Notes: generated from the sequence alone by a model not told the origin. Shown: positions 1-57,671, numbered from the stretch's first letter. The stretch: DNA of 64,000 nt from a virus (IMGVR_UViG_3300045988_162372); one strand, 5' to 3'. A program made the numbers and translations.

Positions 1-1042
1 TATAATCATTAAATTCATCCTGTTCCTTGTTGTTCATAATTTCATCTACCATATTAGCCAACAATCTTTCACCATTTTTTGTTCCTAGAAATACTTCTTG
101 TAAGAATTCATTAAATTCATAACAATGTTTTAATGCAAGCTGCATAAAGAAGAAATTAACACCTACGTCATACACATCAGCATTTATCTTTTCAAACATT
201 GCTGTAATCCTCTTCCACAACGGTATTCCAATTCTTATATCCCAATTCTCAGCCAATTTAAAATCTGATTTTTTGAGGATATATTCAGCCTTTTCTTTTT
301 CTTCTGGTAAACCATGACTGATAGCAAGCTCTAATAGACCCTTGATTGTTTCACAGAACAAAATAGGGAACATAATTCCTTTTGCTTCTATTGTCACCAT
401 ATTCTCTTGGGATTGTATATATACATCCACATTTCCACCTTCAGTATTTTCGTTTTGGTTTAAAGTATCCTTTTCTGAATATAGCAGAATATCATTATAC
501 TTCATTATTTTATTATATAATGATGGTAGGTCTGGATTTATCTTATACAAACTCGAAAGATATATTTCGATGTCTTCAGATATGACAACTGATGCTCCGC
601 TTATTAAAGCATTAAGCATTCTTCTTTTATATATTTCATCTGTAAGATTTTTCATGTCATCAATACTGTCAAACGAGAAATCAAGAGTTTCTTCTGGCAC
701 TAATCTTTGTTGTTTTATATCAATTCCATTGACTATATTAGCCTGAATGTCTATTGTGTCCTGTGGGACAGGCATTATTCTGTTTATCACCTCTATACAA
801 AGATTCTCCAATGCAGGAATACTATTTGCTTCGTTCTTCCTACACGATGTAATCAACATAGGTAATTCGTTTTTTACAGTTTCAATACTTCCAATGCCAT
901 CTGTTAAGTCAGTATATTCCTTATTGATTAATTTGAATAAGAACTTGCTTTCATCTTCAGGTGGCAATGCAGGGGAATCACCTATTGATGTTTCATTTTT
1001 ATTGATCGCATCAACAATATGTTTTGGTAGTTCTAAACTCAT
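1..1042 (-). CDS. hypothetical protein; its 3' end runs off the window, so it is absent from the supplied ORF track
   Basis: Codon-by-codon check of the minus frame from ATG 1040-1042 (MSLELPKHIVDAINKNETSIG...) finds no stop down to position 2. Its ATG overlaps the upstream stop as ATGA. The + ORFs at 342-1055 are its antisense shadows. Confidence 0.6.
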   Translation of the reverse strand, partial: MSLELPKHIVDAINKNETSIGDSPALPPEDESKFLFKLINKEYTDLTDGIGSIETVKNELPMLITSCRKNEANSIPALENLCIEVINRIMPVPQDTIDIQANIVNGIDIKQQRLVPEETLDFSFDSIDDMKNLTDEIYKRRMLNALISGASVVISEDIEIYLSSLYKINPDLPSLYNKIMKYNDILLYSEKDTLNQNENTEGGNVDVYIQSQENMVTIEAKGIMFPILFCETIKGLLELAISHGLPEEKEKAEYILKKSDFKLAENWDIRIGIPLWKRITAMFEKINADVYDVGVNFFFMQLALKHCYEFNEFLQEVFLGTKNGERLLANMVDEIMNNKEQDEFNDY

Positions 1043-1353
1043 AATATTTTTTTAAGGTTATATCTTTTTATGACTTCCGCAAAGTTCATCAATTCAGAAT
1101 TTGCTTTTTTATTTTCTATGATATATTTTCTTTTTAGTTCACCAATACTAATCAGTTTACTTTCATTAGTGTCTTTTGCGTCTATTTCAATGGTTGCATC
1201 ATTCAAATTAACACCGCTTTTTAATGCTTGTTGCTTGGAAGTATCAATAGCTTTTTTAACATCCCCGTTAGCGGCTTGTACATCAGCTTTTAGCGTTACA
1301 CCTTCTTTCAAAGCTGATTTATATTGTTCTTCTGTAATCTTAAATTGTTTCAT
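1039..1353 (-). CDS. small protein with an N-terminal KITEEQY leader motif
   Basis: Track ORF 1039..1359 starts at TTG; the first ATG at 1353 gives MKQFKITEEQYKSALKEG. It is translationally coupled to the next gene. Confidence 0.6.
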   Translation of the reverse strand: MKQFKITEEQYKSALKEGVTLKADVQAANGDVKKAIDTSKQQALKSGVNLNDATIEIDAKDTNESKLISIGELKRKYIIENKKANSELMNFAEVIKRYNLKKIL

Positions 1354-1395
1354 AATCAAGAAATAATATATAAATAAATAGGTTATTTCATAAGA

Positions 1396-1426
1396 AAAAG
1401 CCTCTTTAAATTATAAAGAGGCTTTT
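1396..1426 (-). terminator. intrinsic terminator hairpin
   Basis: aaaagcctcttta/taaagaggctttt forms a 13-bp stem with a 5-nt loop. It has U-runs on both strands and sits between two minus-strand genes. Confidence 0.6.
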
Positions 1427-1444
1427 ATATATTATTAATTTATA

Positions 1445-2080
1445 TCATTTGAATTTAGGTGAAGTAAAAGGTTTTTTCAAATAACCTATACTTGTTATCG
1501 GCTTATCTATCTTTTGTTTTTCGTCATCAGAATGGGAAATTATATCTTGAAAAATCTCATTTATTTTATTTCTCTTTATACTTTCATTCTGATTCACGTC
1601 ATCTTGTGATATATCTTCTTCATTTCCGTTCATTTCGTCTGAGTTCAAATTAGGATTTTCATAATCATCTTCAGTTTCATCGGATTTTATTTTTGAAAGA
1701 ACATCTGTTATGTCTTTATTGCTTAATCCTTTTACCGCTTGTTTGTTAATCATCCCCATAACATATTTACTCAAATCGACATCAGGAGAAGGCAGTTCTT
1801 CATTGTAAGAACGTAAAGATTGACTTAATTTGCCTGCAAGTTGTTGTATATACCTTTTAGGGTCACTTTCTTCATCGGCTTCCACACCTGCGTCAAAATC
1901 AGCTTGATAAGGATTTTGTTCCATTCCTTCATCTCCCATTATTTCTTCCTCACCTGCATTCATATCTCCCATACCTTGATTTGCAACTGGTTCTTGTTGC
2001 GCCATCATATCATCCATTGCAGGTTCTGGTGTATTAACCTTTATCACCTTTCTTTCTTCTACTTCACTTGCTTCACTCAA
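1445..2080 (-). CDS. acidic D/E-rich protein; start uncertain (TTG at 2080, first ATG at 2017); possibly a frameshift extension of the upstream gene
   Basis: 211-aa ORF in the -1 frame relative to 2077..3600. It has no ATG at its 5' end and is preceded by an A10 tract. Confidence 0.5.
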   Translation of the reverse strand: MSEASEVEERKVIKVNTPEPAMDDMMAQQEPVANQGMGDMNAGEEEIMGDEGMEQNPYQADFDAGVEADEESDPKRYIQQLAGKLSQSLRSYNEELPSPDVDLSKYVMGMINKQAVKGLSNKDITDVLSKIKSDETEDDYENPNLNSDEMNGNEEDISQDDVNQNESIKRNKINEIFQDIISHSDDEKQKIDKPITSIGYLKKPFTSPKFK

Positions 2081-3600
2081 CTTTTTTTTTTCGCACCAAA
2101 ATGAGCGAGAACAGCATCAGCAATCAAATCAACGATTTTATCTGTATAAGGAGCGTTAGAACCTATCTGTTTTCCATAAGGTTCTTCACCTTGTGCAGAC
2201 TCATCATCCCATTCATGACCGATTTTTGACACTTCCTTGTTGGGTGGTGTTGTCATTGCCTGTTTCTGATATGCAGGATGTTTCCCAAAATCATTTAAGA
2301 CCATTGTAGATTCATTGCAATTTCTTTTCTTAGATTCTCCATATAAATCCTCATCGTCAGCAAACCCCCATTCTTCATCGTCGGGAATTCTGTCAAATTC
2401 ATAGTCAGCAGGGCTGTACGCCGTACTTTCTGGGTCTAATCTTGGGTCATCTATATGTGGAAAACCTGCATCAGGGAATGGAAGTTCTTCATCATCAATC
2501 TCGAAGCTATATTCATCATCTTCGTCTGGCATACCCGCAACATCATTAACATCAATGTTTTCCTCATTTACGGAAGGATTTTCTTCAAAAGGTTGCCCAT
2601 CGCCAATTTCGCCGTTACCAGGAGTCGGGCAATTTTGATTATCTGAATTATGAACCACATCGCACCCTTCTTCTACTTTTTGGCAATCTCCACATTCAGC
2701 ATACGGCGCAGTATCGCCTATTTCAGTTCCATGAGATTTATCCATATAATCAGCACTTCCATTCCAAGCCAATACTTGTTCTTCAGTTACCTTGATACGA
2801 ATAGGTTTCTTTTTGGATTCATTCATTTTTACGGCATTAGCACCACTAGGACGTTTGTCTGCTACTGAATTATCGGGAACATATTTTGCCTTGTCAGTAT
2901 ATACTTCGCCTTTTTCTCCTTTCTCATTTTTATCTGATTGCATATCAGCATCAGTCGCTTTTCCATCCTTATCATAAGGTTTTCCTGCCTTCTCATGATC
3001 TGAGAGTTCTTTCTTGAAATCCTTATCACCACTAGCCACAGCAGTATCAGTATAAGGGCTATTCACTTGTTTATCTGAAGGATTCTTCGCAGGTGCTTCT
3101 GGAAGAGTGTGTTTCATTGTGAAACTTTTTTCAGAATGTTCTTCATTAAGCAGAGCGTCAACATTTCTTGTAATTTGATTGAAACGTTCAATTTCTGCCC
3201 TCATCTCCTTAGTTTCATTAACCTGCCAATCAGATTGCGAAGATTTCATGACATCCTCACATATTGTTTGTTTATTGGAAGTATAAGCCTCATTCAATGA
3301 CATCATCTTCAAATCAAACTGCTTTGATGCCAAAGCGTAAGTGGGATATTCATATTCTTTTTTATTGTTAATACCTCCAATATAATTGTAATCTTCTGCT
3401 AATGGTTCTGTATCTTTAGGGGGTGCAACTTTAATATAAAATTTATTACACTCTCTAATAATGCCGTATGTTTTCCCATCAGCACCTTTCATATGGTATT
3501 CCAATATTGGTTTGTTGCTAACCGTTGAAACTGTATTGCTATTACCGAAATTAATCAGTTTTTGCATCAACTCTAACTCTTTATCTGCAATATTGCTCAT
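2077..3600 (-). CDS. large acidic hypothetical protein
   Basis: 507-aa ORF with an ATG start and a D/E/P-rich C-terminal half. It carries an internal IRIKVTEEQVLAW copy of the leader motif. Confidence 0.75.
   Translation of the reverse strand: MSNIADKELELMQKLINFGNSNTVSTVSNKPILEYHMKGADGKTYGIIRECNKFYIKVAPPKDTEPLAEDYNYIGGINNKKEYEYPTYALASKQFDLKMMSLNEAYTSNKQTICEDVMKSSQSDWQVNETKEMRAEIERFNQITRNVDALLNEEHSEKSFTMKHTLPEAPAKNPSDKQVNSPYTDTAVASGDKDFKKELSDHEKAGKPYDKDGKATDADMQSDKNEKGEKGEVYTDKAKYVPDNSVADKRPSGANAVKMNESKKKPIRIKVTEEQVLAWNGSADYMDKSHGTEIGDTAPYAECGDCQKVEEGCDVVHNSDNQNCPTPGNGEIGDGQPFEENPSVNEENIDVNDVAGMPDEDDEYSFEIDDEELPFPDAGFPHIDDPRLDPESTAYSPADYEFDRIPDDEEWGFADDEDLYGESKKRNCNESTMVLNDFGKHPAYQKQAMTTPPNKEVSKIGHEWDDESAQGEEPYGKQIGSNAPYTDKIVDLIADAVLAHFGAKKKS
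2082..2091 (-). other. A10 homopolymer (T10 on the + strand) at a gene junction; candidate slippage site
   Basis: The minus strand reads GCG AAA AAA AAA AGT TGA. A -1 shift, or one extra A in the mRNA, reads AAG TTG AGT GAA into ORF 1445..2080. Confidence 0.4.
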
Positions 3601-3660
3601 TATATTCTTTAATAAACTATAGTTATTTTAATTATAAATAGTTTCAAAATTCGTTATTTA

Positions 3661-5922
3661 TCAACTAATGGTCTTGCTTTTATTATATGTATTATTTATA
3701 ATGTCCCATATCTTATCAAGATAACCCATTCTTCTGATTATCTTGTAAATAACATTTCCGCTTCCCATTTCACCAGAACGCTTAAGACTCTCTTTCCGTA
3801 TTCCTTTTATTTTATCCAATAGTTTTTTAACATTCTTACCTATCATATCTATCTTATGGTTATCTGTTTCTTTTTTTAGGTCTTTTTCGTAACTGTCTAT
3901 CAGTGTCATAAACTTAGCTGCCTGTTCTTTGACATAGACTTCATTTATCTTAGCATCATCAATGTTTTTTGGTTCTTTAATCCATTCATTCTTGTCAAGC
4001 GAATAGACACCACCCGCCTCTAATTTATCGTCTTTATCTTGAACATATAATTCAACAGGAAAACCGTATATTGTTAAATCTTCATGGTCTCGTTTCCATA
4101 GTTCCTTTTTACTGTTAAAATAATCTTCTACAAATTCTTTTTTCTTGTATATCTTGCTGAAGTCTATAATGATATGCACATCAATGTCAGAATATTTAGA
4201 CCAATTATAATTTGCAATAGAACCTGTAAGAATTATATCCTCTGGTTTCACCCATCTTACAGAAAGTTCGTCTATAAAATCATCAGCTATGTCAAGAAGT
4301 CTTAATCGTACCCGTGAATTAAGTTTATCATTAACCCATATCTTAGGATTAAGTTCATCTTGTACTTCAAACGATTTCAAACTTATGTCAGAGCTTGACA
4401 CTTCATTTATTCTATTAACTGATTCAAGCACCCCTTGTTGGCGTAGATAATCTTCTCCAACAGTCTGACGCAGTATTTGTAATATAACAACATCATCCAC
4501 CCTATATTCTCCGATTTGATTAAGCAGTTTGTTATGCTCCCCTATATAGTTTGCAAAATCATATATATCACCATTACATTTCTTTAATATATTGCTGAAT
4601 GTTTCTTGATTATACCAATCTAGTTCTTCAATTCTAAAATTCCTACCTTGAATACTAACAGAACTATCACGGGAGGTTACTTCGCCCCCATTCATGAATT
4701 CAAATGTATGATTTTCAAATTCAGATTTATCAACTTCAATAGAAAATACAACGCCTCTTGCAAAATTATCTTTGAAAGATGTGAAAAACCAGTTAACTCC
4801 ATAAGTCTCCCCAGTCCTTTTTCCATGACGAGCATTTATTTCTCCATCAAGCAATATATCTTCCAACGCAAATATATCAGTTCCATGATATAGTCTTATT
4901 TTTTGTGGAAGACTATCATAATTTTCAGGTTTCCATTCATTTATATGTTGCACAGATTCATTTGTCGGATTGGATAATATATTCATTATTTCTTGTTTTG
5001 TATGAAAAATGGGGTTTTCTTCTTTGTCAAACAAATAAACACCTTCAATAGCATTAGGCATTACAATACCCCTATACCCTATTTTTGGAAATTTTGTACC
5101 ATATCTCTTACTATTTTGCGCAATCTCGCCTTTAAATGCATTCCAATAAGGTTTGGAAGACGTATAAGGATCATCTTTTCCTGGATATGTAAATTCCTTA
5201 ACAAAGTCAAAGTCAAGTACAACTTTATTCTTATCTATATGGTCTGAATTAATTTTCAAAACCGCCATAGGTGATTTTTTATCATCATTATACATGCCAG
5301 CGTAAGATTTAGCAATAGCGAAATCAGATGTAAGGAAAACAAATCCGTCATTTTTTGCATTAAAAATTGAATTGTCTTGCATTTTTCTAAGACCTTTGGT
5401 TAAAATGCCATATAAATGCTTCATAACAGTACCATGATATAATGGATTGGCGATTTGGATTGTATGCGGATTTTTTACTGTATCATTAATTGTTACAGCC
5501 TTACCATTTACAATAATTTTATCAAATGCCTTTGATTGTTCACTTTGTAGGAATTGCTTAAATTCAGGTGATGCTGTTACATTATATGATGTATTTTCAA
5601 TATCTAAACTCAAGCCATCATCATCATAATCAACCATACCTATTATGACTTTGGGAAAACTAATGAAATAATCATATATTGCATTAATAACATCTCCACT
5701 ATTATGGAATTCATTTTTTAATGCCCCATCATTATAAAAGAAATGTTCTTTTACAGATGGAAAAGCATCGCATAATTCTTTAATCAAACGCATTAAAGTA
5801 TTACTATATCCGTCTTCCTCATTCAAAATATACACATTTCCTTTGAAGATGACTACCATATCATCAACATCCAAAGCATTGAAGTTACCATTTACATATC
5901 TTAATTCGCAAATATCAGCCAT
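3661..5922 (-). CDS. multidomain (polyvalent-type) protein: two ART-like LYHGT modules plus a C-terminal pol-beta-type nucleotidyltransferase
   Basis: Contains LYHGTVMKHLYG...GFVFLTSD and RLYHGTDIFALE...VNWFFTS. The C-terminus has TGSIANYNWSKYSDIDVHII, which fits the GS-x10-DxD NTase signature. Confidence 0.8.
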   Translation of the reverse strand: MADICELRYVNGNFNALDVDDMVVIFKGNVYILNEEDGYSNTLMRLIKELCDAFPSVKEHFFYNDGALKNEFHNSGDVINAIYDYFISFPKVIIGMVDYDDDGLSLDIENTSYNVTASPEFKQFLQSEQSKAFDKIIVNGKAVTINDTVKNPHTIQIANPLYHGTVMKHLYGILTKGLRKMQDNSIFNAKNDGFVFLTSDFAIAKSYAGMYNDDKKSPMAVLKINSDHIDKNKVVLDFDFVKEFTYPGKDDPYTSSKPYWNAFKGEIAQNSKRYGTKFPKIGYRGIVMPNAIEGVYLFDKEENPIFHTKQEIMNILSNPTNESVQHINEWKPENYDSLPQKIRLYHGTDIFALEDILLDGEINARHGKRTGETYGVNWFFTSFKDNFARGVVFSIEVDKSEFENHTFEFMNGGEVTSRDSSVSIQGRNFRIEELDWYNQETFSNILKKCNGDIYDFANYIGEHNKLLNQIGEYRVDDVVILQILRQTVGEDYLRQQGVLESVNRINEVSSSDISLKSFEVQDELNPKIWVNDKLNSRVRLRLLDIADDFIDELSVRWVKPEDIILTGSIANYNWSKYSDIDVHIIIDFSKIYKKKEFVEDYFNSKKELWKRDHEDLTIYGFPVELYVQDKDDKLEAGGVYSLDKNEWIKEPKNIDDAKINEVYVKEQAAKFMTLIDSYEKDLKKETDNHKIDMIGKNVKKLLDKIKGIRKESLKRSGEMGSGNVIYKIIRRMGYLDKIWDIINNTYNKSKTIS

Positions 5923-6019: not shown

Positions 6020-7141
6020 ATGCAAAAAGAAAATACAGTTACAGAAAATGCAAAGGAAATAAAAGACGTTTTGCCAAAGGTAGGATTAACTCCTAAGCAG
6101 CTTCATGACCAGCTTAATGAATACATCATTGGTCAGGATGAAGCAAAGAAAACTCTATGTGTTGGGATGTATAATCATTGGAAAAGAGTTTTAATGAATA
6201 AAATGGGACTAACCATTGATAACGAAACTTTGAAAGATGTAAATATAGAAAAATCAAATATACTGCTACTTGGTAATACAGGTACAGGAAAAACTTATAT
6301 TATTAAAACTCTTGCGAAAATGTTGGGTTTGCCTTGCTATATTGGTGACGCAACTAGACTTACTAGTGCAGGGTATGTAGGTGATGACATAGAAACTGTT
6401 ATCACTGGGCTTTTACAAGAATGCAATTACAATGTGCAAGCTGCTGAAATGGGAATTATTTGTATTGACGAAGCAGATAAGCTATCACGAAAAGGAGATA
6501 ATCCTTCTCTGACAAGAGATGTTGGTGGTGAAAGTGTGCAACAAGGAATCCTAAAGATTGTAGAAGGTGGCGTTGTAGGTGTACCTCCCTTTGGTGGTAG
6601 AAAACATCCTGAACAACCGTTGCTTTATGTTGATACAACAAATATTCTTTTCATTTTTATGGGAGCTTTTGAAGGATTGGATAAGATTATATCTAAACGT
6701 TGTAATACTTGTCGTATTGGTTTTAATCAGCAACCTACAGTAAAGAATACGGAAGATATAATGAACAATGTAACGCCAGAAGATTTGAAGAAATATGGAT
6801 TTATCCCAGAATTGATAGGTCGTTTCCCAATCATTACATCAACCAAAGATTTAACTAAAAAAGATTTAGTCAGAATTTTGAAAGAACCTAAAAATGCGAT
6901 TATTAAACAATATCAAAAGCTATTAGCCCTTGATGATATTACATTGAATTTTTTAGACAAGGCACTTGAAAAGATTGCTGAATATGCATTGGAAACAAAA
7001 ACTGGTGCAAGAGGGTTGAAAAGAATTATGGAACAAGTATTGAACAATGTTATGTACGATTTTTCTGATTATAAAGGAAAGACTATTACCATAGATACAA
7101 AATATGTTGTCAATACTCTAAAATATAAAAAAGCTGCTTAA
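6020..7141 (+). CDS. clpX: ClpX-like AAA+ unfoldase lacking the N-terminal zinc-binding domain
   Basis: Motifs seen: IIGQDEAKKTL, Walker A GNTGTGKT, pore loop GYVG, Walker B ICIDEADK, GGRKH loop, IGF tripeptide (CRIGFNQ) and sensor GARGLKR. There is no Cys cluster at the N-terminus. Confidence 0.9.
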   Translation: MQKENTVTENAKEIKDVLPKVGLTPKQLHDQLNEYIIGQDEAKKTLCVGMYNHWKRVLMNKMGLTIDNETLKDVNIEKSNILLLGNTGTGKTYIIKTLAKMLGLPCYIGDATRLTSAGYVGDDIETVITGLLQECNYNVQAAEMGIICIDEADKLSRKGDNPSLTRDVGGESVQQGILKIVEGGVVGVPPFGGRKHPEQPLLYVDTTNILFIFMGAFEGLDKIISKRCNTCRIGFNQQPTVKNTEDIMNNVTPEDLKKYGFIPELIGRFPIITSTKDLTKKDLVRILKEPKNAIIKQYQKLLALDDITLNFLDKALEKIAEYALETKTGARGLKRIMEQVLNNVMYDFSDYKGKTITIDTKYVVNTLKYKKAA

Positions 7142-7239
7142 CAGCAACTACCATAAGGCTTCATATCTCAGCAATCATCTATGTGTAGTGCATAGCAGCT
7201 TTATAATTAAATATCATAAAGGAATACAAAGTTATATAA

Positions 7240-7662
7240 ATGAATAATAAAGACAGAAAAGTTAAACAAGTAATAGTTATCAGGAAAGATTTGAAAATGA
7301 GAACTGGCAAAGCAATAGCACAAGGTTCTCATGCATCATTAGGTGCATTGCTTACTGTGTTTGATAAAATGGAATATCCAGATGATAGGGTTAAATATAC
7401 TCTATCCTTTAATAAGGATTCTGTATTGGATAAATGGCTTAATGGCATATTTACCAAAATATGTGTTTATGTCAATAGTGAAAAAGAATTGGATGAATTA
7501 TATAATAATATAAAAAGTAACTCCCCACAAATACCTTGTGTACTTATTGAAGATGTGGGTTTAACAGAGTTTCATAACGTTAAAACGAAAACTTGTATAG
7601 GTATAGGCCCTTGGTGGAATGATGAAATTGATGAATATACAAAAAATTTACCACTTCTTTAA
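7240..7662 (+). CDS. pth2: peptidyl-tRNA hydrolase, PTH2 family
   Basis: KQVIVIRKDLKMRTGKAIAQGSHASLGA matches the PTH2 core (VVRxDLxMxxGKxxAQxxHA). Its 140-aa size is typical for the family. Confidence 0.8.
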   Translation: MNNKDRKVKQVIVIRKDLKMRTGKAIAQGSHASLGALLTVFDKMEYPDDRVKYTLSFNKDSVLDKWLNGIFTKICVYVNSEKELDELYNNIKSNSPQIPCVLIEDVGLTEFHNVKTKTCIGIGPWWNDEIDEYTKNLPLL

Positions 7663-10529: not shown

Positions 10530-13500
10530 TTACTCAAAAGTAATTGTTGGGAATTTATTTGCATCATAATTTATACAATAATCGCTTCCCTGTATAGCAT
10601 CTATACAAACAACAACTACTTGATTTTCATCTTTGCTACCACAAACTGACACTATATCCGAAGGTAATATCTTTTCACCATTATGGATTAAATTAATAAA
10701 GTTTACTTTAATCTTTTCTGGACTGAATAAGTTAGCTTCTTCAGCTTGGGCTTCACTTTCTGTATTAGTATAATCTTCACATATTAAGAAACCACTCCAT
10801 AAAGGATTGCTATCCCACTCATCAACTGTACAGTTAATAATATTGACAGTTACTCCACTTGCATTAGATTTATTACTTAATCTTAATGCGTTAGATATTC
10901 TTTCAAAGTAACAGTTATTCAAAGTAATAGTTGCATTATTTTGTGTTCCAAATATTAATATCGCATTATTTGAGAAGCTACCCTCAAATCTACAATTATC
11001 AAAGATTATATTTTTAGGCAACTTAGAATTATCAGATGATAAACCAATTTCAATACCATTATAAACATTACTTGAATTAAATGTCATATCTTTAAAGATT
11101 ATATTTTCAGTATCATTAATGTTTATTACAGAATTTGAAGTTGATTTAGGAAAGTCACCAGTTACTTGTAAATTATTTATATTAACATTTTCCGCTTTGA
11201 TTCGCATTCTTGCATTATTAGTTAATGTAGAATCATTTAAGATTACAGACTTTGCCGTAATAGATGGGCTATTCGTTATATTAGCATTACTTATTGAATA
11301 CGCTTTAGCTTCATCGTTTAATTCCTGAGAACCATCATAGGTTTCAACTACTTCTGAATTTGATTTTTCTAAATTATCTACTTTTGATTCTAATAATTCA
11401 ACTTTTGCAGACAAGATAGGAATGTTGGATTTTAAATCATTAACAGTTTGATACAAACTTTCGATTTGAGTGTTAATTTTACTTATGATAGCAAATTCTT
11501 CAACTTTAGCTGCTTGGAATACGCTATATACGCCATCAGTAATTTTAATTGATACAGTATACAAACCTGTTGGTTGCATCATATAGTTTTGTCCCACAAT
11601 ATACAGAACATATGCTGCTCCGTTCCAAGCTACTGATATTGGCATCCAATTTGACAGCAACTGATAACCCTTTCCTAAGCAATCATCAAGAATTTCGGCT
11701 GTAGGTAATGTATAACTACCACTTGAGGTTTCTAATTGCAATGCTGCCTTAATATCATCCTCAGAGCTTTCCTTAGTTAAAGCAAACAGTTTTCGTGTAT
11801 CTACTTTAACACCTTGGTAGTACATACCTTTCTTTTGAATTTTTCCATCCAAAACCTTACCTTGTTTAGCTGACAAAGGTAATGTAGCTTCGTCACTAGT
11901 CAAATTGTCAACAACCATCTCTTCGCTCATAACGCTATGTGTTACGCTATTCTTTGCGAGAGTTCCACTTGTATTTTGAATATTGATTTCATTCAAGGTA
12001 TAACCTGCGAGGCTATCAAGTACATAATAAACAGTAGTAATATTACCCAATATTCTAATGGAAACTGGCACAGTTCCATTATTAATATCGCCAATAACGC
12101 TTCTGTTTTCGCTTATAACCGCCCTCAAATTATCAATTCCACCAATAGCCGTTGAAATAGCTTCACTATCAGCATCACCCGCACTATTCAATGCATTCAA
12201 ATCGATTTCATAAGGAGCTTTGAATTGTTCCAAGTCAGCCTTAATTTCATCAATGTCAGCTTGTTCTGCTTTTGTTGCGATAGCAGCATCAACTTCATCT
12301 TTGGTTTGATACAATGAATCGTTTTCCAATTCACTTACCTTAGTAGGAACGGTAATCTCTTGAACATCGCTAAGCAATGCTAATTCAGCGTCATCATTAT
12401 AGGTAGGTCTTTCGTCCTTTCCATTCAGATTGATTGAAACTTGAGTAGAACCTAAATCAACCTTATCCCACTTAGATACCATTGCGATATTAACTGCGCT
12501 TCCGCTTGTTGTATTTCCAAGCAAAGTATCATGATTATTCAGCACAATAGCCTTACGGTTCGGATTTTCCTCAGTTGTAACATCAGTATAAGCTACCTTA
12601 TTAGCCAATTCAGTTTCAATTTCCGTATCCTTAGCAATTCTTGCTTGAGTTTCTGCTTCAATGTTTCCTTGCAATTCAGTATCTTTTGCTGAACGGGCTT
12701 CAATTTCAGCGTTCAAAGCTTCAGTGGTTGCCTTTTCTGCAATTTGGGTAGTAAGAGAAGCTACAATATCATCATTGTCTGACAATTTATTTGCAATTTC
12801 TTCCAACGTATCCAATGCTTCAGGTGCTGCACCAACTACCGCTTGGATTCTAGCATCAACTTCGCTTGAAGTTTGGTATTGAGCATCATTTTCCAATTCG
12901 CTAACTTTTGTAGGAATTTTGATAGCATCAATCTTCTCATTCAACGCATTAACCTGGAAGTCAACATCAGATTGATTAGCCTTCAACGCAACTTCATCCT
13001 TGGTTGCTAAATTAGAAATATCTTGATGTTCTTTCAAAAATCCTTGAGTATTTACCCATTCCTCAGTTGCATAACCGTCCAATGAAGGCATATCAGTAGC
13101 AAATGCCAAATCGCTACTTGTTACTTTGATGTTAGAATTACCTTCAGCAATCGTACCATCCAAGTTGATAATAATTTCATACTTGGTAGGCATGTCATTA
13201 GTTGTATCAAGACCAATAACAACCATCTTGATTTGGTTTGCAGATTCAAATGCAATATATTGAATCGGCATCTTATAGTAATAAGGATTTCCACTCAATT
13301 GAATACCGAATTTCAAGTAGAATTGACCTTCCCTTACAATAAGACCTTTTAATTCAGCAGCATCAGCAACGCTAAACCAACCAAAGATTTCTTTTTGAGT
13401 ATATACCTTATCTTGCAAAGTTCTAATCGGGAAATTAAATTCAATAGGAAGTTTAATTTCTTCGATATCCTTCATCAATGCGATTTCTTCATCATCATTG

Positions 13501-15170: not shown

Positions 15171-15233
15171 TTTAAATATTTATAGATAAGAAATAATTAT
15201 TATTACCTATAAATATTAAGAAACATTTAATAC

Positions 15234-16186: not shown

Positions 16187-18727
16187 TTAATTATATAATT
16201 CTTTCTTTGTAAATATATGGTTTTTAGAAACATTATTATTCAAAATATATTCGGTAACAATATCTTCGACATCTGTCTCAATTTGTCTAATAATTGTTCT
16301 CGCACCGTATTTATTTCCTTCTATTTTGTTATATATTTTATCAATCATATCATTATCAATAAAATTATCTTCCAAATAATAATCAGCGTTATTCAGCCTC
16401 TTTTCAAAATTTTTCAGTTCTAATCTTACAATATCCTTAAGGTTGTCATCGGATAATTTATTAAAATAAACAATCTTGTTTATACGGTTAATAAATTCGG
16501 GCTTAAATTTTCTCTTTATCGCTTTTTTGATTATGTTTTCATTGTTATCTACTGTATTCTTATTAAAACCAATGCCATCTCCTTTCTCATCAATTTCTTT
16601 CGCCCCCACATTCGATGTCATTATAATGATAACATTTTTGAAATCAACCGCATAACCAGTATTATCGGTCAATCTTCCGTCGTCGAATAATTGTAAGAAC
16701 ACATTATGTACTTCTTCATTAGCTTTTTCGATTTCATCAAGCAATAAAACGCAGTGTTTTTTCTTTTTAATTGCTTCAGTCAAAATACCTCCATTATCAT
16801 AGCCGACATAACCACTGGCTGCACCGTATAATTTGTTTACACTCATCTTATCCGCATATTCACTCATGTCCAATCGAACTAGATAATTCTCATCCCCAAA
16901 TACTTCTTTTGCAATTTTCTTAGCAAGAAGTGTTTTACCAGTACCTGTACTTCCAGTAAATAAAAATACGGCAGGTTTATTTGGATTTGAAATGCCTAAT
17001 TTCTGTTTCTTTATAGCATTACATACAACATCTACAGCTTCGTCTTGACCAATGACGCTTTCTTTAATATGCTCGTTAATACTTTTCAATTTATCCAAAT
17101 CATTGATGGAAAGATTTTGTATTGACACTCCTGACATTTCAGAAACAGTTCCTCTTAAATCATTGTCAGTTACATTATACGGCACTTTGTTTAAGTTTTG
17201 TTCTTTTTCCAAAATGGATAATTGTGTCTTAAGCTGTATCTCTTTTCTTATAAGCTCATCATATCTATCATAATCCTTATAAGTTAGATTGTCAACCTTT
17301 TGTTTTTCAATTTCATTTAATTTCAATTTGTTTTTTAATTCACTGACTTTTGCACTATCCTTTTGATTTAACGAAATTTTAGCTCCAACTTTATCAAGAA
17401 CATTAATTGCTGAATCTGGCAACACATTATCAGTTATATAACGTTTGCATAATTTCACACAATCTTCAACAATTTTATCATCATATTTTACATTATGGAA
17501 GTTTTCCATTTTGTATTTAATATTATTAACTATCTTGACAGATCTCTCCAAAGACGGAACTTCCATCGTTATTTTTTGAAATCTTCTTTTAAACGATTGA
17601 TTATTTTCAATACAATTCTTATAGCCTTTATTGCTTGCTGTACAAATAAATTGGATATTTTTCTCCATCAAAATTGTATCCAACATAGTTTCAATGTCAA
17701 CCTCACCAAATTTTGACTTATCATTCAATATTGATTGTATATCATCAATGAAAAAAATATAATTCCCATCTTTTTTTGCGTCACTGACAATACTATTGAA
17801 TTTACTTTCAAATGAGCCTCTAAAACCAGTTCCTGATAACAAAGATGAGAAATCCAATTGCATAAGTTTTTTCTTCAAGAAAGGCTTAGGAACATTCTCA
17901 TTGACAATCATATTAGCTATATGACGAATGGTGGAAGTTTTGCCGCATCCGCTTTCGCCAATCACGACAACATTATTTTTATATCTTTTTTGAAGATTTG
18001 TAAATATATCAAAAATTACATCATCATTTTCAAACACCTCATCAATTTTTCCCTCTAACGCCAACGTATTCAAGTTAATCAAGTTTTTATCAACCTCATT
18101 AGTAGAAGGTTTGGATTTTGGCTTTTGCATAACAAGTGTCTTTATTTTAGATGAAGAACTGCTATTTTCATTTTTTTCTCTTTGTTTAGTATGTTTATAT
18201 TCCTCTAACATTTCATTTGTAGCCTTTATAATAGCAAGTTCTTTTTGTTTTTTATCCCGTTTTTGGTCTTTTGTAAAAGGTTCGTTTTTATATGATACTA
18301 TATTTTCCTTAACTTGTTCCTCAGTTACGCCTAACAATCTAAACGATTTTTTAACAGTTTCGTCTGTTTCTAAAAGACTATATAATATATTTGCCGAATT
18401 AATAACATCATCATCTACCTGCGCTTCTGCCGTTTTAAATGCGTTTTGAAGAAGATTGTCTATTATAGGTTGTTCTGTTGAAACCAATTGTGAAGAATTA
18501 TCAGAAAGGTATTGATAATACCATGTTTTCAACATTTCAATGGTTTCGTTAAACATTATCTTGTTAATTGTCTTATATGCAATACAATCTTCATTACTCA
18601 GGATTGATAATAAAAAGTATTCGGGTGTTACCTTATTGGAAGGATATTCTTTAAGTAAGCTTTCTGTAATGTAATCCATCACCAAATGAAGCTCATCTGT
18701 AATTTTCTTGTTTCCTAATTTGTCCAT
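16187..18727 (-). CDS. clpC: ClpC/ClpA-class double-ring AAA+ unfoldase
   Basis: Clp N-domain repeats. D1 has Walker A GESGCGKTS and Walker B IFFIDDIQ. D2 has GSTGTGKT, LLLDEIEKA and TSNVGA followed by GDGIGFNKN, an IGF-type ClpP-docking loop as in ClpC and ClpA. Confidence 0.9.
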   Translation of the reverse strand: MDKLGNKKITDELHLVMDYITESLLKEYPSNKVTPEYFLLSILSNEDCIAYKTINKIMFNETIEMLKTWYYQYLSDNSSQLVSTEQPIIDNLLQNAFKTAEAQVDDDVINSANILYSLLETDETVKKSFRLLGVTEEQVKENIVSYKNEPFTKDQKRDKKQKELAIIKATNEMLEEYKHTKQREKNENSSSSSKIKTLVMQKPKSKPSTNEVDKNLINLNTLALEGKIDEVFENDDVIFDIFTNLQKRYKNNVVVIGESGCGKTSTIRHIANMIVNENVPKPFLKKKLMQLDFSSLLSGTGFRGSFESKFNSIVSDAKKDGNYIFFIDDIQSILNDKSKFGEVDIETMLDTILMEKNIQFICTASNKGYKNCIENNQSFKRRFQKITMEVPSLERSVKIVNNIKYKMENFHNVKYDDKIVEDCVKLCKRYITDNVLPDSAINVLDKVGAKISLNQKDSAKVSELKNKLKLNEIEKQKVDNLTYKDYDRYDELIRKEIQLKTQLSILEKEQNLNKVPYNVTDNDLRGTVSEMSGVSIQNLSINDLDKLKSINEHIKESVIGQDEAVDVVCNAIKKQKLGISNPNKPAVFLFTGSTGTGKTLLAKKIAKEVFGDENYLVRLDMSEYADKMSVNKLYGAASGYVGYDNGGILTEAIKKKKHCVLLLDEIEKANEEVHNVFLQLFDDGRLTDNTGYAVDFKNVIIIMTSNVGAKEIDEKGDGIGFNKNTVDNNENIIKKAIKRKFKPEFINRINKIVYFNKLSDDNLKDIVRLELKNFEKRLNNADYYLEDNFIDNDMIDKIYNKIEGNKYGARTIIRQIETDVEDIVTEYILNNNVSKNHIFTKKELYN

Positions 18728-24589: not shown

Positions 24590-24690
24590 TCTGTCTGTAC
24601 TTTTGTTCTTTATAACAATAAATATCTGACATAATTATATGTTTAAGGAGTTTTTCCTGAATATTTATATTTTAGATAATATTTTTGATT

Positions 24691-26389: not shown

Positions 26390-26431
26390 CAATATTTATA
26401 TTAAATAATGTACATTATATAATACAAAAAT

Positions 26432-29188: not shown

Positions 29189-29216
29189 AGTTTTAACACT
29201 AATTTTCTTATAAATA

Positions 29217-34596: not shown

Positions 34597-34648
34597 TATA
34601 TTAATAACATTTAACTATATAGATATAAATAGTTTCAGATATTATCTG

Positions 34649-37748: not shown

Positions 37749-37789
37749 TATATTTATAATATAATAATGGATTGTTTCATATTGAACTT

Positions 37790-49795: not shown

Positions 49796-49836
49796 TATTT
49801 ATTTAATATAAAACTATTATTTGAAAAGATTTACAA

Positions 49837-50541
49837 ATGAATAAACTGACAGAAAACAAACTTCAACAACTTATAAAAGAAGCATTGGAAGAAATGGTAA
49901 CTGATGCTGAAGGTATGTACTCTCATGGATATGTACTTGTAGATGATGCAGATATGGCAGTTTTAGGTAATTATAGTAACCCTGATGATTTGCAAGACGC
50001 TATTAATGATGCAAAATCAATGGCTGAAGCTAATCCTTATGGTTCATACAGAGTATGTGGCTGTGATGAAAATGGGCAATATGATTATGACGAAACTTGT
50101 GTATTCTCTACATTTAATGAAGGAAAACAAAGATTCGCCAAATATCTTAATGAGAATATCAAAACAATACTCACTCAAGTTATTTCAGAGAATAAAGACA
50201 AAATCAAAGAAATAATCAAAGAAGCTAACCAAAGTCAAAAGACCGTTGGAAGAAAACAGAAAATTTCTGAAGCCATTGATGATATTGCAAGTCAATTTAT
50301 AGATTGGGCATTGAATGATTCCAATACACAAAGACGTATGGGTGGCCCAGTAAATGCTTTGCAAGCAATGCATGATTATTATTACAACAATGATGATGAC
50401 GCTCTCTATATTGCGGCAGAAGCTTTTGCAGAAGCCAAAGGTATTGAAGATGCTGAAAGTAATATTTATATGATTCTTGATGCTGCAAAGAAAGCTGCTG
50501 AATATTATTTCAACAGTAATCCTGATGAGGAACAAGTATGA
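49837..50541 (+). CDS. hypothetical protein with the leader motif
   Basis: MNKLTENKLQQLIKEALEEMV. Confidence 0.6.
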   Translation: MNKLTENKLQQLIKEALEEMVTDAEGMYSHGYVLVDDADMAVLGNYSNPDDLQDAINDAKSMAEANPYGSYRVCGCDENGQYDYDETCVFSTFNEGKQRFAKYLNENIKTILTQVISENKDKIKEIIKEANQSQKTVGRKQKISEAIDDIASQFIDWALNDSNTQRRMGGPVNALQAMHDYYYNNDDDALYIAAEAFAEAKGIEDAESNIYMILDAAKKAAEYYFNSNPDEEQV

Positions 50542-53622: not shown

Positions 53623-53656
53623 TGTTTGTTTTTCTTTTTAAGTAACTTCTGTGTAT

Positions 53657-54632: not shown

Positions 54633-54634
54633 AA

Positions 54635-56256: not shown

Positions 56257-56360
56257 AATTTAAAGCTATAATTATTCACACTTACTTTTAAACTGAAATC
56301 ACAATAAATACAATCTCTGCATTCTTTATCAATTATTATAATATCATTATTGTTATTCAT
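56244..56360 (-). CDS. unlisted 38-aa Cys-containing mini-ORF
   Basis: Hand translation gives MNNNNDIIIIDKECRDCIYCDFSLKVSVNNYSFKLWKH. It has an ATGA overlap with the upstream stop and overlaps the next ATG, filling the gap between two genes. Confidence 0.4.
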   Translation of the reverse strand: MNNNNDIIIIDKECRDCIYCDFSLKVSVNNYSFKLWKH

Positions 56361-56701
56361 ATAATTCCTTTCTTTTGCAAATATTCAGCCATTTTGAATG
56401 CATTGAATAAGCCTAGTGGTTCATCAGAACAATCATATGCGTAATCCATTATTGTTTGGTCATCCGCATCTCCGTGTAACCAATCGTTGAAATTCTGCGT
56501 TAATCCATTGTTATATTCATCGTAATCTTCTTTATACTCAAAACATTCACGGTCATTCACGTCAATTCCGAAAATGTTTCGCATAATATATTTTGCTTCT
56601 CTTGTTGTTACAGGGCGTTTTGTAACAAGACCGTGTGAAAAATCGTTGGGAGTTAAAACCTTAATAGGAGATAAGCTGATTTTTGTTATCTTTTTCGACA
56701 T
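56357..56701 (-). CDS. hypothetical protein
   Basis: 114-aa ORF; first gene after the promoter at 56735. Confidence 0.6.
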   Translation of the reverse strand: MSKKITKISLSPIKVLTPNDFSHGLVTKRPVTTREAKYIMRNIFGIDVNDRECFEYKEDYDEYNNGLTQNFNDWLHGDADDQTIMDYAYDCSDEPLGLFNAFKMAEYLQKKGII

Positions 56702-56734
56702 AATAAAATATTTTTAAATCCATTAAACACGTTG

Positions 56735-56765
56735 CAAAGATATAAAAGAAAATACAAATCACAAA
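56735..56765 (-). promoter_or_regulatory. Bacteroides-type promoter (minus strand)
   Basis: The + strand shows caaagata at 56735-56742 and caaa at 56762-56765, with a 19-nt spacer. Confidence 0.7.
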
Positions 56766-56861
56766 ATAATTGATATTAAAATAAGTTAATAGATAAAGAA
56801 ATCTTCCAAATCAGAACAATAATACCATTTTTCTTTTTTATATTATTCTGAAATGGAAATA

Positions 56862-57671
56862 TCATTTCTTAATACACTCATACATATTGTCAGAAACAAG
56901 GGAATAATCGCCGTTATTATCATAGGCTGATTTAACTTGATTAGGAGAAAACACAATATATTCATTGACCTTTCTCATATTACCATCAACCACATTATAG
57001 ATGATGATACCGTCACAACCTTTTGCCTTAGCTTCTTTTACAAAATCCTCAGCAATACCGCTGCCATTGCCATTCAAGTTGTCAAACCTTCTTCCTTTTG
57101 CATCAATTACAAACGGTTTCACAATCCTTGCGTAAAGTCTTAATATTCCACCCTCATAACTTCTGCTCAACCATCTTTTAACCCAATCAACTCTTGTGTA
57201 ATCAGCATTTGTTTCATCACCAGTGTCCGTATTGACAAGCATGTTGCTCATTTCATTAGAATAAGGATTTGAATATTTCCTCTCAATCTTGAACAAACCT
57301 GTGGAAGCCAAATCCTTAATGAGAGTATTCAAATCGTTAAAGTCATAATCCTTGTCCATAATAGCTTTAATCTTTGGTTCGATAACATTGCCCTTATCAA
57401 TAAATCTCTTGGATGAAGAATAATCAGAAGCCAGTCTCTTGTCATCAGTAAGGAAGATAAGGCTCGTGTCAAACGTGTCAAATGTATTTGGCGTTCCATG
57501 ATACACCTCCTTTGGAGAACCGTCGTCGTTCACCACCTTACTACCTTGAAACCATCTCCAAAACGCATCATTCTGTTCGTTTGATTCAAATATATTGTTT
57601 AAATAATGAGATTGTTCTTCAGTTATTTTGAATATTCTCTTGATTTTATTTCCTTTAACTGATTTATCCAT
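56862..57671 (-). CDS. ART-like protein with the N-terminal leader motif
   Basis: Contains RIFKITEEQSHYLNNIFE, then VYHGTPNTFDTFD and LIFLTDDKRLASDYS. Confidence 0.6.
   Translation of the reverse strand: MDKSVKGNKIKRIFKITEEQSHYLNNIFESNEQNDAFWRWFQGSKVVNDDGSPKEVYHGTPNTFDTFDTSLIFLTDDKRLASDYSSSKRFIDKGNVIEPKIKAIMDKDYDFNDLNTLIKDLASTGLFKIERKYSNPYSNEMSNMLVNTDTGDETNADYTRVDWVKRWLSRSYEGGILRLYARIVKPFVIDAKGRRFDNLNGNGSGIAEDFVKEAKAKGCDGIIIYNVVDGNMRKVNEYIVFSPNQVKSAYDNNGDYSLVSDNMYECIKK

Follow-up and report, generated by a model that had tools for sequence, protein, structure and literature searches.

Why should a phage begin many unrelated proteins with the same short peptide? The question is raised by a 64,000-nucleotide stretch of viral DNA (IMGVR_UViG_3300045988_162372, here termed the window), in which an earlier note had listed eight N-termini and one internal copy sharing a leader and had suggested a sorting signal, be it one for virion packaging or ejection, a docking helix or a processing site. 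A sequence check finds all nine where the note had placed them, and the shared leader on many window proteins is a real observation. The window comes from a T4-like phage of 216–357 kb, whose host is probably Prevotella.

Window variants of the leader are 17–28 aa long. Strong copies occur in five ORFs (starts 1353−, 26432+, 29188−, 34596− and 37790+) and divergent copies in three (25268+, 49837+ and 57671−; termed flavour B, I-T-E-x-Q-[YF]-x-x-L-x-x-E), the latter accepted because the architecture of their homologues backs them. In all, the 64 kb hold five strong and up to ten candidate carriers (Table 1). A core regular expression has nine matches in the 86 window genes, seven of them inside the first 30 residues; N-terminal matches average 0.19 in shuffled proteins (maximum three in 2000 shuffles), so that the N-terminal enrichment exceeds what composition would produce. 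An HMM of nine window leaders scores its own members at 15.5–22.9 bits and the best non-member among the 60,049 six-frame residues of the window at 5.1 bits; when each leader is left out in turn, five of nine rank first, two rank third and two fail. With a family HMM whose sequences come mainly from outside the window, five window ORFs score 12.4–24.3 bits, noise reaches 7.4 bits and four window members fall under noise. The leader helix is amphipathic and basic (hydrophobic moment 1.52 versus a shuffle mean of 0.74).

Table 1. Leader copies and related features of the window (a slash marks the boundary after Glu)
Feature	Position	Strand	Carrier ORF	Family HMM (bits)	Promoter-like motif
Leader MKQFKITEEQYKSALKE	1303–1353	−	104 aa, 1039–1353, adjoins head module	16.0	1373–1380
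Leader MAKTVIRLNEDELKGMIKNILKE	26432–26500	+	157 aa, 26432–26905	19.0	26393–26400
Leader MVKKNFVITESDLKRIIKEELKNVIHKE	29105–29188	−	71 aa, 28973–29188	24.3	29209–29216
Leader MGKTIKITEAQYRYLQE	34546–34596	−	369 aa, PRTase-like, 33487–34596	12.4	34624–34631
Leader MTKYTISESRLKELVVEE	37790–37843	+	125 aa, 37790–38167	13.2	37751–37758
Divergent leader MNKLTENKLQQLIKEALEE	49837–49893	+	234 aa, 49837–50541	3.2 only	49796–49803
N-terminal extension plus leader MDKSVKGNKIKRIFKITEEQSHYLNNIFE	57585–57671	−	269 aa, ART-PolyVal, 56862–57671		57701–57708
Leader MKIFCKIPKNTFIVSENQMKNILFE	25268–25342	+	373 aa, two domains, 25268–26389		
Leader-like inter-domain linker LNSLQIKQINE/AM, ending h-x-E/A	25745–25777	+	inside 25268–26389		
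Half leader MKDLKTLIYEAINEFVNE	24691–24744	+	185 aa, 24691–25248, directly upstream of 25268		24662–24669
Internal leader-like module NESKKKPIRIKVTEEQVLAW, residues 260–279	2764–2823	−	507 aa, acidic, 2077–3600		
Doubtful copy ...RIERLTESQLSQLLLNEE, candidate added in this analysis	21022–21108	+	314 aa, 21022–21966	5.9 (under noise)	

The window copy nearest to the clade consensus, MKKIIRLTESDLHRIVKESVKRILKE, is that of ORF 28973–29188. The earlier note had also seen enzyme-like domains among the carriers. Its ART-like domain is borne out by a match of ORF 56862–57671 to ART-PolyVal (PF18760, E=1.2e-18); an AF2 model of this carrier was uninformative. Close homologues begin directly with MIFKLVESQLHLLYNIFE/T, and distant ART-PolyVal homologues lack the leader and begin at the FWxWFGxSKVV motif. 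The PRTase label of ORF 33487–34596 is weaker (PF00156, E=0.002, match at the PRPP loop), and the kinase-like label of ORF 25268–26389 applies to the C-terminal domain and comes from its fold only: for the AF2 model (pLDDT 81, falling below 50 at residues 162–170 in the inter-domain linker) every top PDB match has a kinase or phosphotransferase fold (E 8e-4 to 2e-2). Homologues of the neighbouring ORF 24691–25248 that are fused to a kinase-like domain (P0346, P0358) begin MEDIRKLVREALMEIVKE/G, as judged by eye and not by alignment, and its orthologue in locus L007 begins MKKNELKNIIKEEIIKLLDE. ORF 49837–50541 clusters with another carrier of that locus (2306–2851), and its cargo block (GGPVNALQAMHDYYYNNDDD) reappears, again by eye and not aligned, between the leader copies of the multi-leader protein P0248. 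The internal copy in ORF 2077–3600, whose HMM score of 1.7 bits is insignificant by itself, carries the [ND]-E-S-K ('NESK') prefix seen in the internal copies of multi-leader proteins. The copy in ORF 21022–21966 is doubtful, scoring 15.5 bits as a training member and 6.3 when left out; this ORF has no promoter-like motif and lies in a replication-gene operon.

Run on 80 related phage loci (1.03 M six-frame residues), an HMM trained on the window leaders only yielded dozens of further copies. Among 45 matches of at least 7 bits, 39 (87%) follow a Met at a distance of 4–12 residues, the background frequency being 13.8% (binomial p ~1e-27); one match, in a putative HNH-type protein of L056 with a seemingly HTH-like N-terminus, looks like a false positive. 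The claim that the leader sits on unrelated proteins holds: 70 carriers form 52 unrelated cargo clusters. The cargo includes enzymes (an ADP-ribosyltransferase and kinase-like, PRTase-like and NUDIX proteins) as well as many very small proteins, often acidic. Against 5.8e9 proteins, leader profile E-values reach 1e-14, and the 26-aa consensus is near-invariant over hundreds of proteins; in public data the carriers amount to thousands of clusters. The consensus matches no family of Pfam or PHROG, a consensus double-leader query matched none of 50,697 GenBank phage records, no cultured relative came to light, and four motif strings were not found in the literature searched. In leader codons the first two positions have high information and the third low, and Ser is drawn from both TCN and AGY; with third positions and Ser codon families free to vary and the residues retained, it is the peptide that is under purifying selection.

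The leader is also a modular element. Carriers form tandem arrays near the capsid gene in four loci (L025, L037, L018 and L091), and 86 proteins, among the top 150 representatives, have two leader copies. Leader-like linkers ending h-x-E/A connect the domains of multi-domain relatives; in homologues the kinase-like domain is always joined through ...h-x-E/A-M-D-D, the preceding part being a leader, an ART domain or another domain. Fused relatives combine ART with a kinase-like domain (P0315) or have a double kinase-like domain (P0304), and both gene fusion and gene fission occur at leader junctions.

What machinery does this phage have that might act on such a peptide? On the 216–357 kb contigs that contain window genes, the genes directly to the left encode Terminase_6N, Portal_T4, Peptidase_S77, an acidic 495-aa protein and Gp23; T4-type head assembly genes (portal gp20, gp21-family protease, scaffold-like protein, gp23) are thus present. 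The prohead protease is of the gp21 family (S77; PF03420, E=1.7e-19), 28% identical to T4 gp21 (E=1e-17) with the LGxLxHP and GVSSRGxGS blocks kept, and the capsid protein is 33% identical to gp23. The acidic protein occupies the gp22 position and is scaffold-like by position and composition only; it and ORF 2077–3600 have a 70-aa block in common (pairwise E=0.003). A promoter-like motif, TATTTAT[ATG], lies 23–45 nt upstream of the TerL, portal, protease, scaffold-like, capsid and tail-fibre genes, and it precedes seven of nine window carriers versus 10 of 77 other window genes (p=1e-4).

T4 gp21 protease cuts after the Glu of [LIV]-x-E, and the leader carries two or three such sites. In a logo of 180 leaders, L-T-E, V-K-E and L-K-E stand at 0, +9 and +17, and conservation collapses straight after the last Glu, the next residue being G, S or A; at the level of sequence, the leader thus ends in a protease motif of the [L/I]-x-E type. 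In 31 relatives the N-terminal extension of the capsid protein has a conserved [LI]-x-E/[AST]-T around residue 60, a site resembling ...FLTE/A of T4 gp23, from which a 65-residue propeptide is removed (PMC9958956). Other T4 sequences (NC_000866) have MKTYQEFIAE/A (IPII and IPIII), MKTFKEF...TITE/A (IPI), MELITE... (Alt), ...LLRE/S (gp24), ...LLIE/T (gp21) and MLKEQLIAE/A (gp22). The N-terminus of the scaffold-like protein weakly resembles the leader (hhalign P=6e-4, probability 29%), a likeness paralleled in T4 by the start of gp22 and the ...QEFIAE/A of the capsid-targeting sequence (CTS).

We give somewhat better than even chances to a T4-type role of the leader in the capsid targeting and processing of injected effectors. 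The short strand-like segment and the amphipathic, mostly basic helix would dock the protein into the scaffolding core during prohead assembly, and may do so by mimicking the N-terminal helix of the scaffold protein; the gp21-family protease would then cut after Glu within and at the end of the leader, and the freed cargo would remain in the head until it was ejected, together with the DNA, into the host cell. Multi-domain relatives would use this module as a cleavable linker. ART-PolyVal domains have been predicted to be packaged and injected, with T4 Alt as the prototype (PMC5512222). The context thus favours the sorting signal of the earlier note, through the protease family, the [LIV]-x-E sites, the T4-like leaders, the promoter-like motif and the ART cargo; because copies also lie inside proteins, at a C-terminus and, in chromosomes, beside an IS transposase, we infer such a signal as the best explanation and do not treat it as established. 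Several observations count against capsid loading: a bare cleavage site would require neither the length nor the very strong conservation of the leader; copies also occur internally and at a C-terminus; upstream of non-carrier genes in the regions that flank capsid genes, the promoter-like motif is just as frequent (35%); and the likeness to the scaffold-like protein is weak.

The closest known system is that of T4, whose internal proteins, otherwise unrelated, bear capsid-targeting propeptides of 10–19 aa (PMC9026906, PMC3012670). Like the CTS of IPI, IPII, IPIII and Alt, removed by gp21, the leader is a short peptide at the N-terminus of otherwise unrelated proteins, in a phage whose T4-type head module includes a gp21-family protease; further common traits are a Met-Lys-x-aromatic/hydrophobic start, an [LI]-x-E end followed by a small residue, and an ADP-ribosyltransferase (Alt in T4) among the cargo; as with the T-even IP genes, carriers are numerous and vary between related phages. 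The leader differs in having no significant homology to MKTYQEFIAE (the likeness, MK-x-[FY]... and ITE, is by eye, in peptides too short for a significance test), in its greater length with two or three candidate sites, in its use as an internal linker, and in its much larger scale. Moreover, many cargo tails are acidic here, a further point against capsid loading, whereas IPI–III are described as basic (PMC9026906). Some leader copies, unlike the CTS, are IS-borne in host chromosomes.

Other systems share single traits with this one. The giant phages phiKZ, 201phi2-1 and SPN3US belong to another lineage and have S/A/G-x-E as cleavage motif, and their proteins are not known to have a strongly conserved leader in common. 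Many of their head-internal proteins are cut after Glu by gp21-related proteases, and their propeptides hold several redundant sites (PMC9026906, PMC5694885). Polyvalent or MuF-type effectors (Iyer et al. 2017, PMC5512222) resemble the present proteins in the ART-PolyVal domain and predicted delivery with DNA, in matches of carrier domains to PHROG profiles 21376 and 13543 (1.6–1.9 kb long) and in the true multi-domain fusions of some relatives. Polyvalent proteins proper have 2–15 disparate effector domains per polypeptide, whereas window carriers have one or two and are mostly separate genes, each with its own leader; fusions run through leader-like linkers, proposed to be cleavable, and no MuF or portal fusion was seen. 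A RiPP precursor leader does not fit, with cargo of up to 373 aa in the window that includes folded enzymes and no RiPP enzyme family among neighbouring genes; nor does an RHH or HTH DNA-binding N-terminal domain, there being no Pfam match over the leader and conservation ending after one helix.

Leader copies are not confined to phages. Sixteen GTDB genome contigs have single copies in low-GC islets, two of these genomes being Prevotella/Segatella isolates, and four of the copies lie directly beside an IS1595 transposase with no phage visible around them, which counts against capsid loading. Phage and bacterial loci show 80–90% DNA similarity over the leader and 25–40 nt upstream.

These chromosomal copies would suit a leader that is a general partner-binding or self-association helix unrelated to the capsid, perhaps binding nucleic acid or some factor of host or phage, and working alike in phage- and chromosome-encoded proteins. 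The amphipathic, basic helix, the many proteins with internal or C-terminal copies and the strong conservation over 26 residues fit equally, yet such a helix leaves unaccounted for the stop of conservation at Glu plus a small residue, the h-x-E/A at domain junctions, the promoter-like motif in common with head genes and the tandem arrays beside the head module; nor does any Pfam DNA-binding or other domain match the leader, and we hold this reading unlikely. The DNA similarity between phage and bacterial loci, the tandem arrays, the fusions and fissions at leader junctions and the IS beside some copies could also mean that the shared 5' end is a by-product of duplication or recombination (paralogues, or shuffling at a promoter-plus-leader cassette) and that the peptide has little function. 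PeSL cassettes of T4-type phages, mobile regulatory cassettes in which a conserved segment flanks variable ORFs in plastic regions and favours modular shuffling, offer a precedent (PMC2839356), but the conserved segment here is mostly coding and under selection as a peptide, and the enzymes that bear the leader arose independently and have other homologues without it; we regard this by-product reading as improbable.

The Met-basic-hydrophobic start of the leader recalls ClpX N-terminal recognition motifs, and two ATPases are encoded in the window near the head module, one of them ClpX-like (6020–7141; AAA_2, ClpB_D2-small) and the other an 846-aa protein of the ATP-dependent-protease type (16187–18727). 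A tag for phage Clp-like AAA+ unfoldases, for unfolding and translocation into the head or for timed degradation, would accord with the speculation that ClpA/ClpX of jumbo phages may translocate proteins in virion assembly (PMC7824862). Internal and C-terminal copies are at odds with an N-degron, however, and the Glu-terminated boundaries indicate the prohead protease, so that this role seems quite improbable. Chance or composition, finally, would reduce the leader to a common helix N-cap (h-T-E-E-Q...), such as a K/E/I-rich, AT-rich proteome might contain; 'LTEEQ'-type motifs do start helices in many proteins, the L056 match resembles such a case, and some window members fall under noise. The shuffle and positional statistics, the profile E-values and the near-invariant consensus speak to the contrary, and for the core set this highly improbable origin is largely refuted; ORF 21022–21966 alone could still owe its copy to it.

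If the capsid-loading reading is true, the leader would be a tag like that of phage T4 on a much larger scale. A bolder version, which we consider a long shot, would make it a portable address label derived from the scaffold N-terminal helix, loading thousands of families, as single genes or as protease-cut [leader-cargo]n polyproteins, into the heads of a large clade of uncultured, Prevotella-associated T4-like jumbo phages; IS1595 would have captured leader-tagged genes, and host proteins would board incoming capsids. Were that so, host-encoded leader proteins would be saboteurs or hitch-hikers in the capsids of incoming phage.

The earlier note had reported a short conserved N-terminal peptide (the leader) on at least eight proteins with unrelated downstream sequence (carriers, named here by start position, with cargo being the remainder of each protein), and all eight quoted N-termini were found in the window sequence. 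A core regular expression gives nine hits in the 86 window genes, seven of these within the first 30 residues, where shuffled proteins average 0.19 such hits. An HMM built from nine leaders scores its members at 15.5-22.9 bits vs at most 5.1 bits for all else (60,049 six-frame residues). Because this test is circular, the nine were also left out one at a time; five then come out on top, two come third, and the other two fail. The decisive test of the leader's reality is that on independent sequence, namely 80 loci taken around homologues of the capsid gene (44-99% identity). As the earlier note had proposed, the leader was counted by HMM in these related genomes: the window-trained model gives 45 hits of at least 7 bits, 39 of them sitting 4-12 residues past a methionine vs a 13.8% background (p ~1e-27), and the hits yield the clade consensus MKKIIRLTESDLHRIVKESVKRILKE. 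The shared leader is confirmed as real, and is far more widespread than the window.

A family HMM, built mostly from sequences outside the window and then scored on it, recovers carriers 29188 (24.3 bits), 26432 (19.0), 1353 (16.0), 37790 (13.2) and 34596 (12.4), with a noise maximum of 7.4 bits. Carriers 25268, 49837 and 57671 have a shorter 'flavour B' of the leader, h-T/N-E-x-Q-[YFL]-x-x-L-x-x-E, and score below noise; they are still backed as leaders by their relatives. Close homologues of the ADP-ribosyltransferase (ART) carrier 57671 start MIFKLVESQLHLLYNIFE↓T (↓ marks a cut or junction), homologues of the kinase-like domain of 25268 start with clear leaders, and the cargo block of 49837 reappears, by eye, between the leader copies of the multi-leader protein P0248. 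ORF 21022, added in this analysis, is a doubtful carrier, scoring below noise, having no promoter-like motif and lying among replication genes. ORF 24691 has half a leader.

When 180 leaders are lined up by their first Glu, the resulting logo is M K K [IL] I R L T E(0) S D L H R I V K E(+9) S V x [RK] [IV] L x E(+17), so that [LIV]-x-E occurs three times in the leader; in the window variants it occurs twice, at a spacing of 8-13 residues. Conservation drops abruptly past E(+17), where the commonest next residue is G, S or A. The leader helix is amphipathic (hydrophobic moment 1.52 vs a shuffle mean of 0.74). Information in leader codons is high at the first two positions and low at the third, and leader Ser is encoded by TCN and AGY codons alike, so selection is on the peptide; conservation as a nucleotide-level RNA or DNA element is ruled out by the codon-position analysis. 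Neither Pfam nor PHROG gave a family spanning the leader, four of its motif strings were found in no paper of the literature searched, and a 28-aa leader and a 72-aa consensus of two leaders had no relevant match when compared with GenBank phages by tblastn. An AF2 model of the ART carrier (pLDDT 60) does not resolve the leader and was set aside.

The cargo is diverse: BLASTP places 70 carriers, encoded in the window or in related loci, in 52 cargo clusters. Among the cargos named in the earlier note, the ART-like one was identified as ART-PolyVal and the PRTase-like one gained weak support. The kinase-like one has a kinase/phosphotransferase fold in its AF2 model (pLDDT 81), whose top PDB matches are all kinases or aminoglycoside/choline kinases at E 8e-4 to 2e-2; searched by sequence, the kinase-like and PRTase-like carriers had no matches in PDB. 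NUDIX is a further identified cargo, and most others are small matchless proteins, frequently rich in D, E and Y. A leader profile of 44-aa N-termini, run on word-indexed candidates within a 5.8-billion-protein collection, found 434 proteins, none with a name, at E up to 10 and 1e-14 at best. An exhaustive search of 1.84 billion representatives gave 2,721 hits at E <=1e-3, a number that overstates pure leader hits because the 193-position profile unintentionally contained cargo columns; the best 150 representatives were checked separately, and 140 have a leader of at least 12 bits. Leader genes occur in tandem arrays near the capsid gene and elsewhere, and a 411-kb rumen contig has four in a row, at 36-44 bits each. 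Many predicted proteins of 30-40 aa are the leader alone (P0025, P0026, P0093, P0134 and others, and a case in locus L105); these could be calls cut short where a contig ends, or pseudogenes, or else real peptides made up of a leader and nothing more.

The leader behaves both as a module and as a linker. Distant ART-PolyVal homologues have no leader and begin at the motif FWxWFGxSKVV. The kinase-like domain (597 homologues) follows immediately after a leader, after an ART domain via ...MNESKSNINE↓AM..., or after other domains via ...YESKKRTICITEQQSKILKE↓AMDD..., the junction always being h-x-E↓A. In the AF2 model of the 25268 protein, the parts of low confidence are precisely residues 1-11 and the linker between the domains, 162-170. 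Two leader copies are present in 86 of the 140 leader-bearing proteins among the best 150 representatives, and internal copies have [N/D/Y]-E-S-[K/R] directly before them; P0147 is one example of a two-leader protein. The internal copy reported earlier in the acidic 507-aa ORF 2077-3600 is present in the sequence, reading KMNESKKKPIRIKVTEEQ with the prefix seen in other internal copies. That this ORF is a paralogue of the scaffold-like protein is a weakened idea, the BLASTP similarity being confined to a 70-aa block (E=0.003). In locus L009, a 329-aa protein ends in a leader-like segment, ...NNESKNGITIIITEKQLREIQKNHKY, and its gene overlaps the start of a leader gene; the counterparts of the pair are single fused proteins in other phages (P0365, P0366), and we read the pair as a gene fission or fusion at the leader junction. 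Residues 63-80 of the ORF 1039-1353 cargo, NESKLISIGELKRKYIIE, combine the NESK prefix with a degenerate stretch resembling the leader, and may be a vestigial second module.

The window is AT-rich (GC 29-34%). The protein of ORF 1039-1353 (104 aa) is found in identical form on metagenomic contigs of 243-357 kb, and related IMG/VR contigs span 216-282 kb. Directly left of the window, these contigs carry, in order, genes for a 374-aa protein, Terminase_6N, Portal_T4, two small proteins, Peptidase_S77, an acidic 495-aa protein and Gp23, an order that by annotation corresponds to 20-67-68-21-22-23 of the T4 head genes. The protease, a match to PF03420 at E=1.7e-19, shares 28% identity with T4 gp21 and retains the blocks LGxLxHP and GVSSRGxGS; between the capsid protein and T4 gp23 the identity is 33%, and the best isolate match of TerL is a Flavobacterium myovirus (27%). 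From this gene order and these similarities the source phage is assigned to the T4 superfamily, in which it is a distant member and has a genome of jumbo size. Its host is probably one of the Prevotellaceae, as some leader-bearing contigs were binned with MAGs of rumen Prevotella.

Around the head module, the portal product of L003, a close relative, is 1119 aa vs 684 aa in L001/L002, and the extra sequence may be an insertion, intein or other. L003 also has an inserted OrfB_IS605/Cas12f-like TnpB gene, and L004 a DUF723 gene inserted downstream of the protease gene. Two Clp-like AAA+ ATPases are encoded near the module, one ClpX-like (AAA_2 and ClpB_D2-small domains) and one of 846 aa that matches the PHROG family 'ATP-dependent protease' and whose gene found no match among GenBank phages by megablast; they might have a role in virion assembly or tagged-protein handling. 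A 753-aa product adjoining the module has weak PARP, Tpt1/KptA and nucleotidyltransferase matches; its gene has the structural-type promoter motif and lacks the leader, and it is a candidate multi-domain effector.

That motif, TATTTAT[ATG], lies 23-45 nt upstream of seven of the nine window carriers, and of 24691, vs 10 of the 77 other window genes (p=1e-4). It is also found, at 23-45 nt from the start codon, ahead of the genes for TerL, portal, protease, scaffold-like protein, capsid and tail fibre. In regions flanking the capsid gene it is found upstream of ~35% of genes vs roughly 2% by chance; there it is equally common at non-carriers and so does not discriminate, with no enrichment at carriers over neighbours (24/53 vs 306/867). 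The contrast between carriers and non-carriers is restricted to the largely non-structural window. In this phage clade, (A/C)TATTTAT(A/T) probably serves as the promoter of late or structural genes. The T4 counterpart is TATAAATA, and the clade motif is not identical to it.

Coordinates of features in the window, in related phage loci and in bacterial loci
Feature	Sequence	Coordinates	Strand
Leader gene with IS1595-family transposase	L093, bacterial contig	6559-7557
Leader gene with IS1595-family transposase	L103, bacterial contig	544-1548
Leader gene with IS1595-family transposase	L104, bacterial contig	4808-5794
Leader gene with IS1595-family transposase	L106, bacterial contig	6073-6498
Transposase remnant	L015, phage	5479-5577
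Transposase remnant	L021, phage	3053-3148
Transposase remnant	L091, phage	12368-12463
Promoter-like motif	window	1373-1380
Promoter-like motif	window	3633-3640
Promoter-like motif	window	15208-15215
Promoter-like motif	window	24662-24669
Promoter-like motif	window	26393-26400
Promoter-like motif	window	29209-29216
Promoter-like motif	window	34624-34631
Promoter-like motif	window	37751-37758
Promoter-like motif	window	49796-49803
Promoter-like motif	window	57701-57708
Promoter-like motif	L002	upstream of 11507
Promoter-like motif	L002	upstream of 13530
Promoter-like motif	L002	upstream of 15622
Promoter-like motif	L002	upstream of 17182
Promoter-like motif	L002	upstream of 18122
Promoter-like motif	L002	upstream of 19674
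S77 protease gene	L002	17182-17904
Portal gene, 1119 aa	L003	14225-17584
Portal gene, 684 aa	L001/L002	13530-15584
TnpB gene	L003	6259-7485
ClpX-like gene	window	6020-7141	+
846-aa Clp-like ATPase gene	window	16187-18727	-
753-aa candidate effector gene	window	3661-5922	-
329-aa protein gene	L009	17751-18740	-
Overlapping leader gene	L009	18724-19245	-
NESKLISIGELKRKYIIE stretch	window	1114-1167	-
Leader-only protein	L105	259-981

T4 internal proteins (IPs) carry N-terminal capsid-targeting propeptides of 10-19 residues, which attach to the scaffolding core and which gp21 cuts off after a Glu; across T-even phages the IPs differ widely and have the capsid targeting sequence (CTS) alone in common, and Alt, an ADP-ribosyltransferase, is packaged and processed like them (PMC9026906, PMC3012670, PMC9958956). 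In NC_000866 the cut sites, marked from published propeptide lengths for IPII/III, gp24, gp21 and gp23, are MKTYQEFIAE↓A, MAKINELLRE↓S, MNEPQLLIE↓T and ...GSFLTE↓AEIGG, and, inferred from Glu positions, IPI has MKTFKEFTSTTTPVSTITE↓A and Alt begins MELITE.... The window leaders MKQFKITE↓E, MTKYTISE↓S and ...VITE↓S are laid out like these propeptides, even with the same I-T-E, a likeness too short to prove homology. In the capsid proteins of 31 relatives [LI]-x-E↓[AST]-T is kept near residue 60 of an N-terminal extension, and h-[ST]-E occurs several times in the scaffold-like protein, the acidic 495-aa product in the gp22 position. This protein is similar to the leader over residues 28-50 (ENTESAVKTLLDEAVRD...LLSE in the rumen clade, ESLKDIVSEEVNKNLRKLISE in the window phage), as gp22 of T4, MLKEQLIAE↓A, resembles the CTS; by hhalign the leader and scaffold N-terminus match at P=6e-4 and a probability of just 29%, which is a hint and not evidence of homology.

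The leader also occurs in bacteria. An exact 13-residue pattern of it is on 16 GTDB genome contigs, mostly rumen Prevotellaceae MAGs, with two from isolates (Segatella bryantii DSM 11371 and Prevotella sp. MA2016), whose lineages are candidate hosts of the phages. These loci have essentially one leader gene each, one having a second, weaker copy, in low-GC islets (0.30-0.37) amid DNA of 0.45-0.6 GC; one islet includes a PRTase-like gene with half a leader. In four the leader gene lies tail to tail with an adjoining IS1595-family (ISXO2-like) transposase gene, and in five phage loci just the last ~33 codons of that transposase remain, 3′ of a carrier gene. This pattern suggests that the bacterial copies are leader-tagged IS passenger genes exchanged between phage and host via the IS. 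Together with the internal copies and the leader's very high conservation, such chromosomal copies keep alive a less likely reading in which its helix binds some other, non-capsid partner. The best supported is the sorting-signal reading of the earlier note, taken here as a T4-type capsid-targeting or processing tag, and we consider it somewhat more likely than not. Every step by which leader-tagged proteins would be packaged and cut we infer from resemblance. Homology of leader and CTS is not detectable; the leader is longer and, unlike the known T4 cases, serves as a putative cleavable linker, is used at much larger scale and is linked to an insertion sequence.

Should the leader prove to be a tag for loading the capsid, sequence alone could suffice to list the proteins that a phage injects, the earliest of its host-takeover and anti-defence factors, throughout a large clade of uncultured jumbo phages from gut and rumen. 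As many as 2,721 protein clusters, a count inflated by cargo homologues, would then be candidate effectors, many of them tiny and acidic, and cleavable multi-cargo precursors would be revealed. The CTS principle of T4 would reach another bacterial phylum, at far larger scale, and a defined 26-aa tag would be at hand to load foreign proteins into Bacteroidota phages. The IS-borne chromosomal copies raise the idea that host or mobile-element proteins may get into phage capsids.
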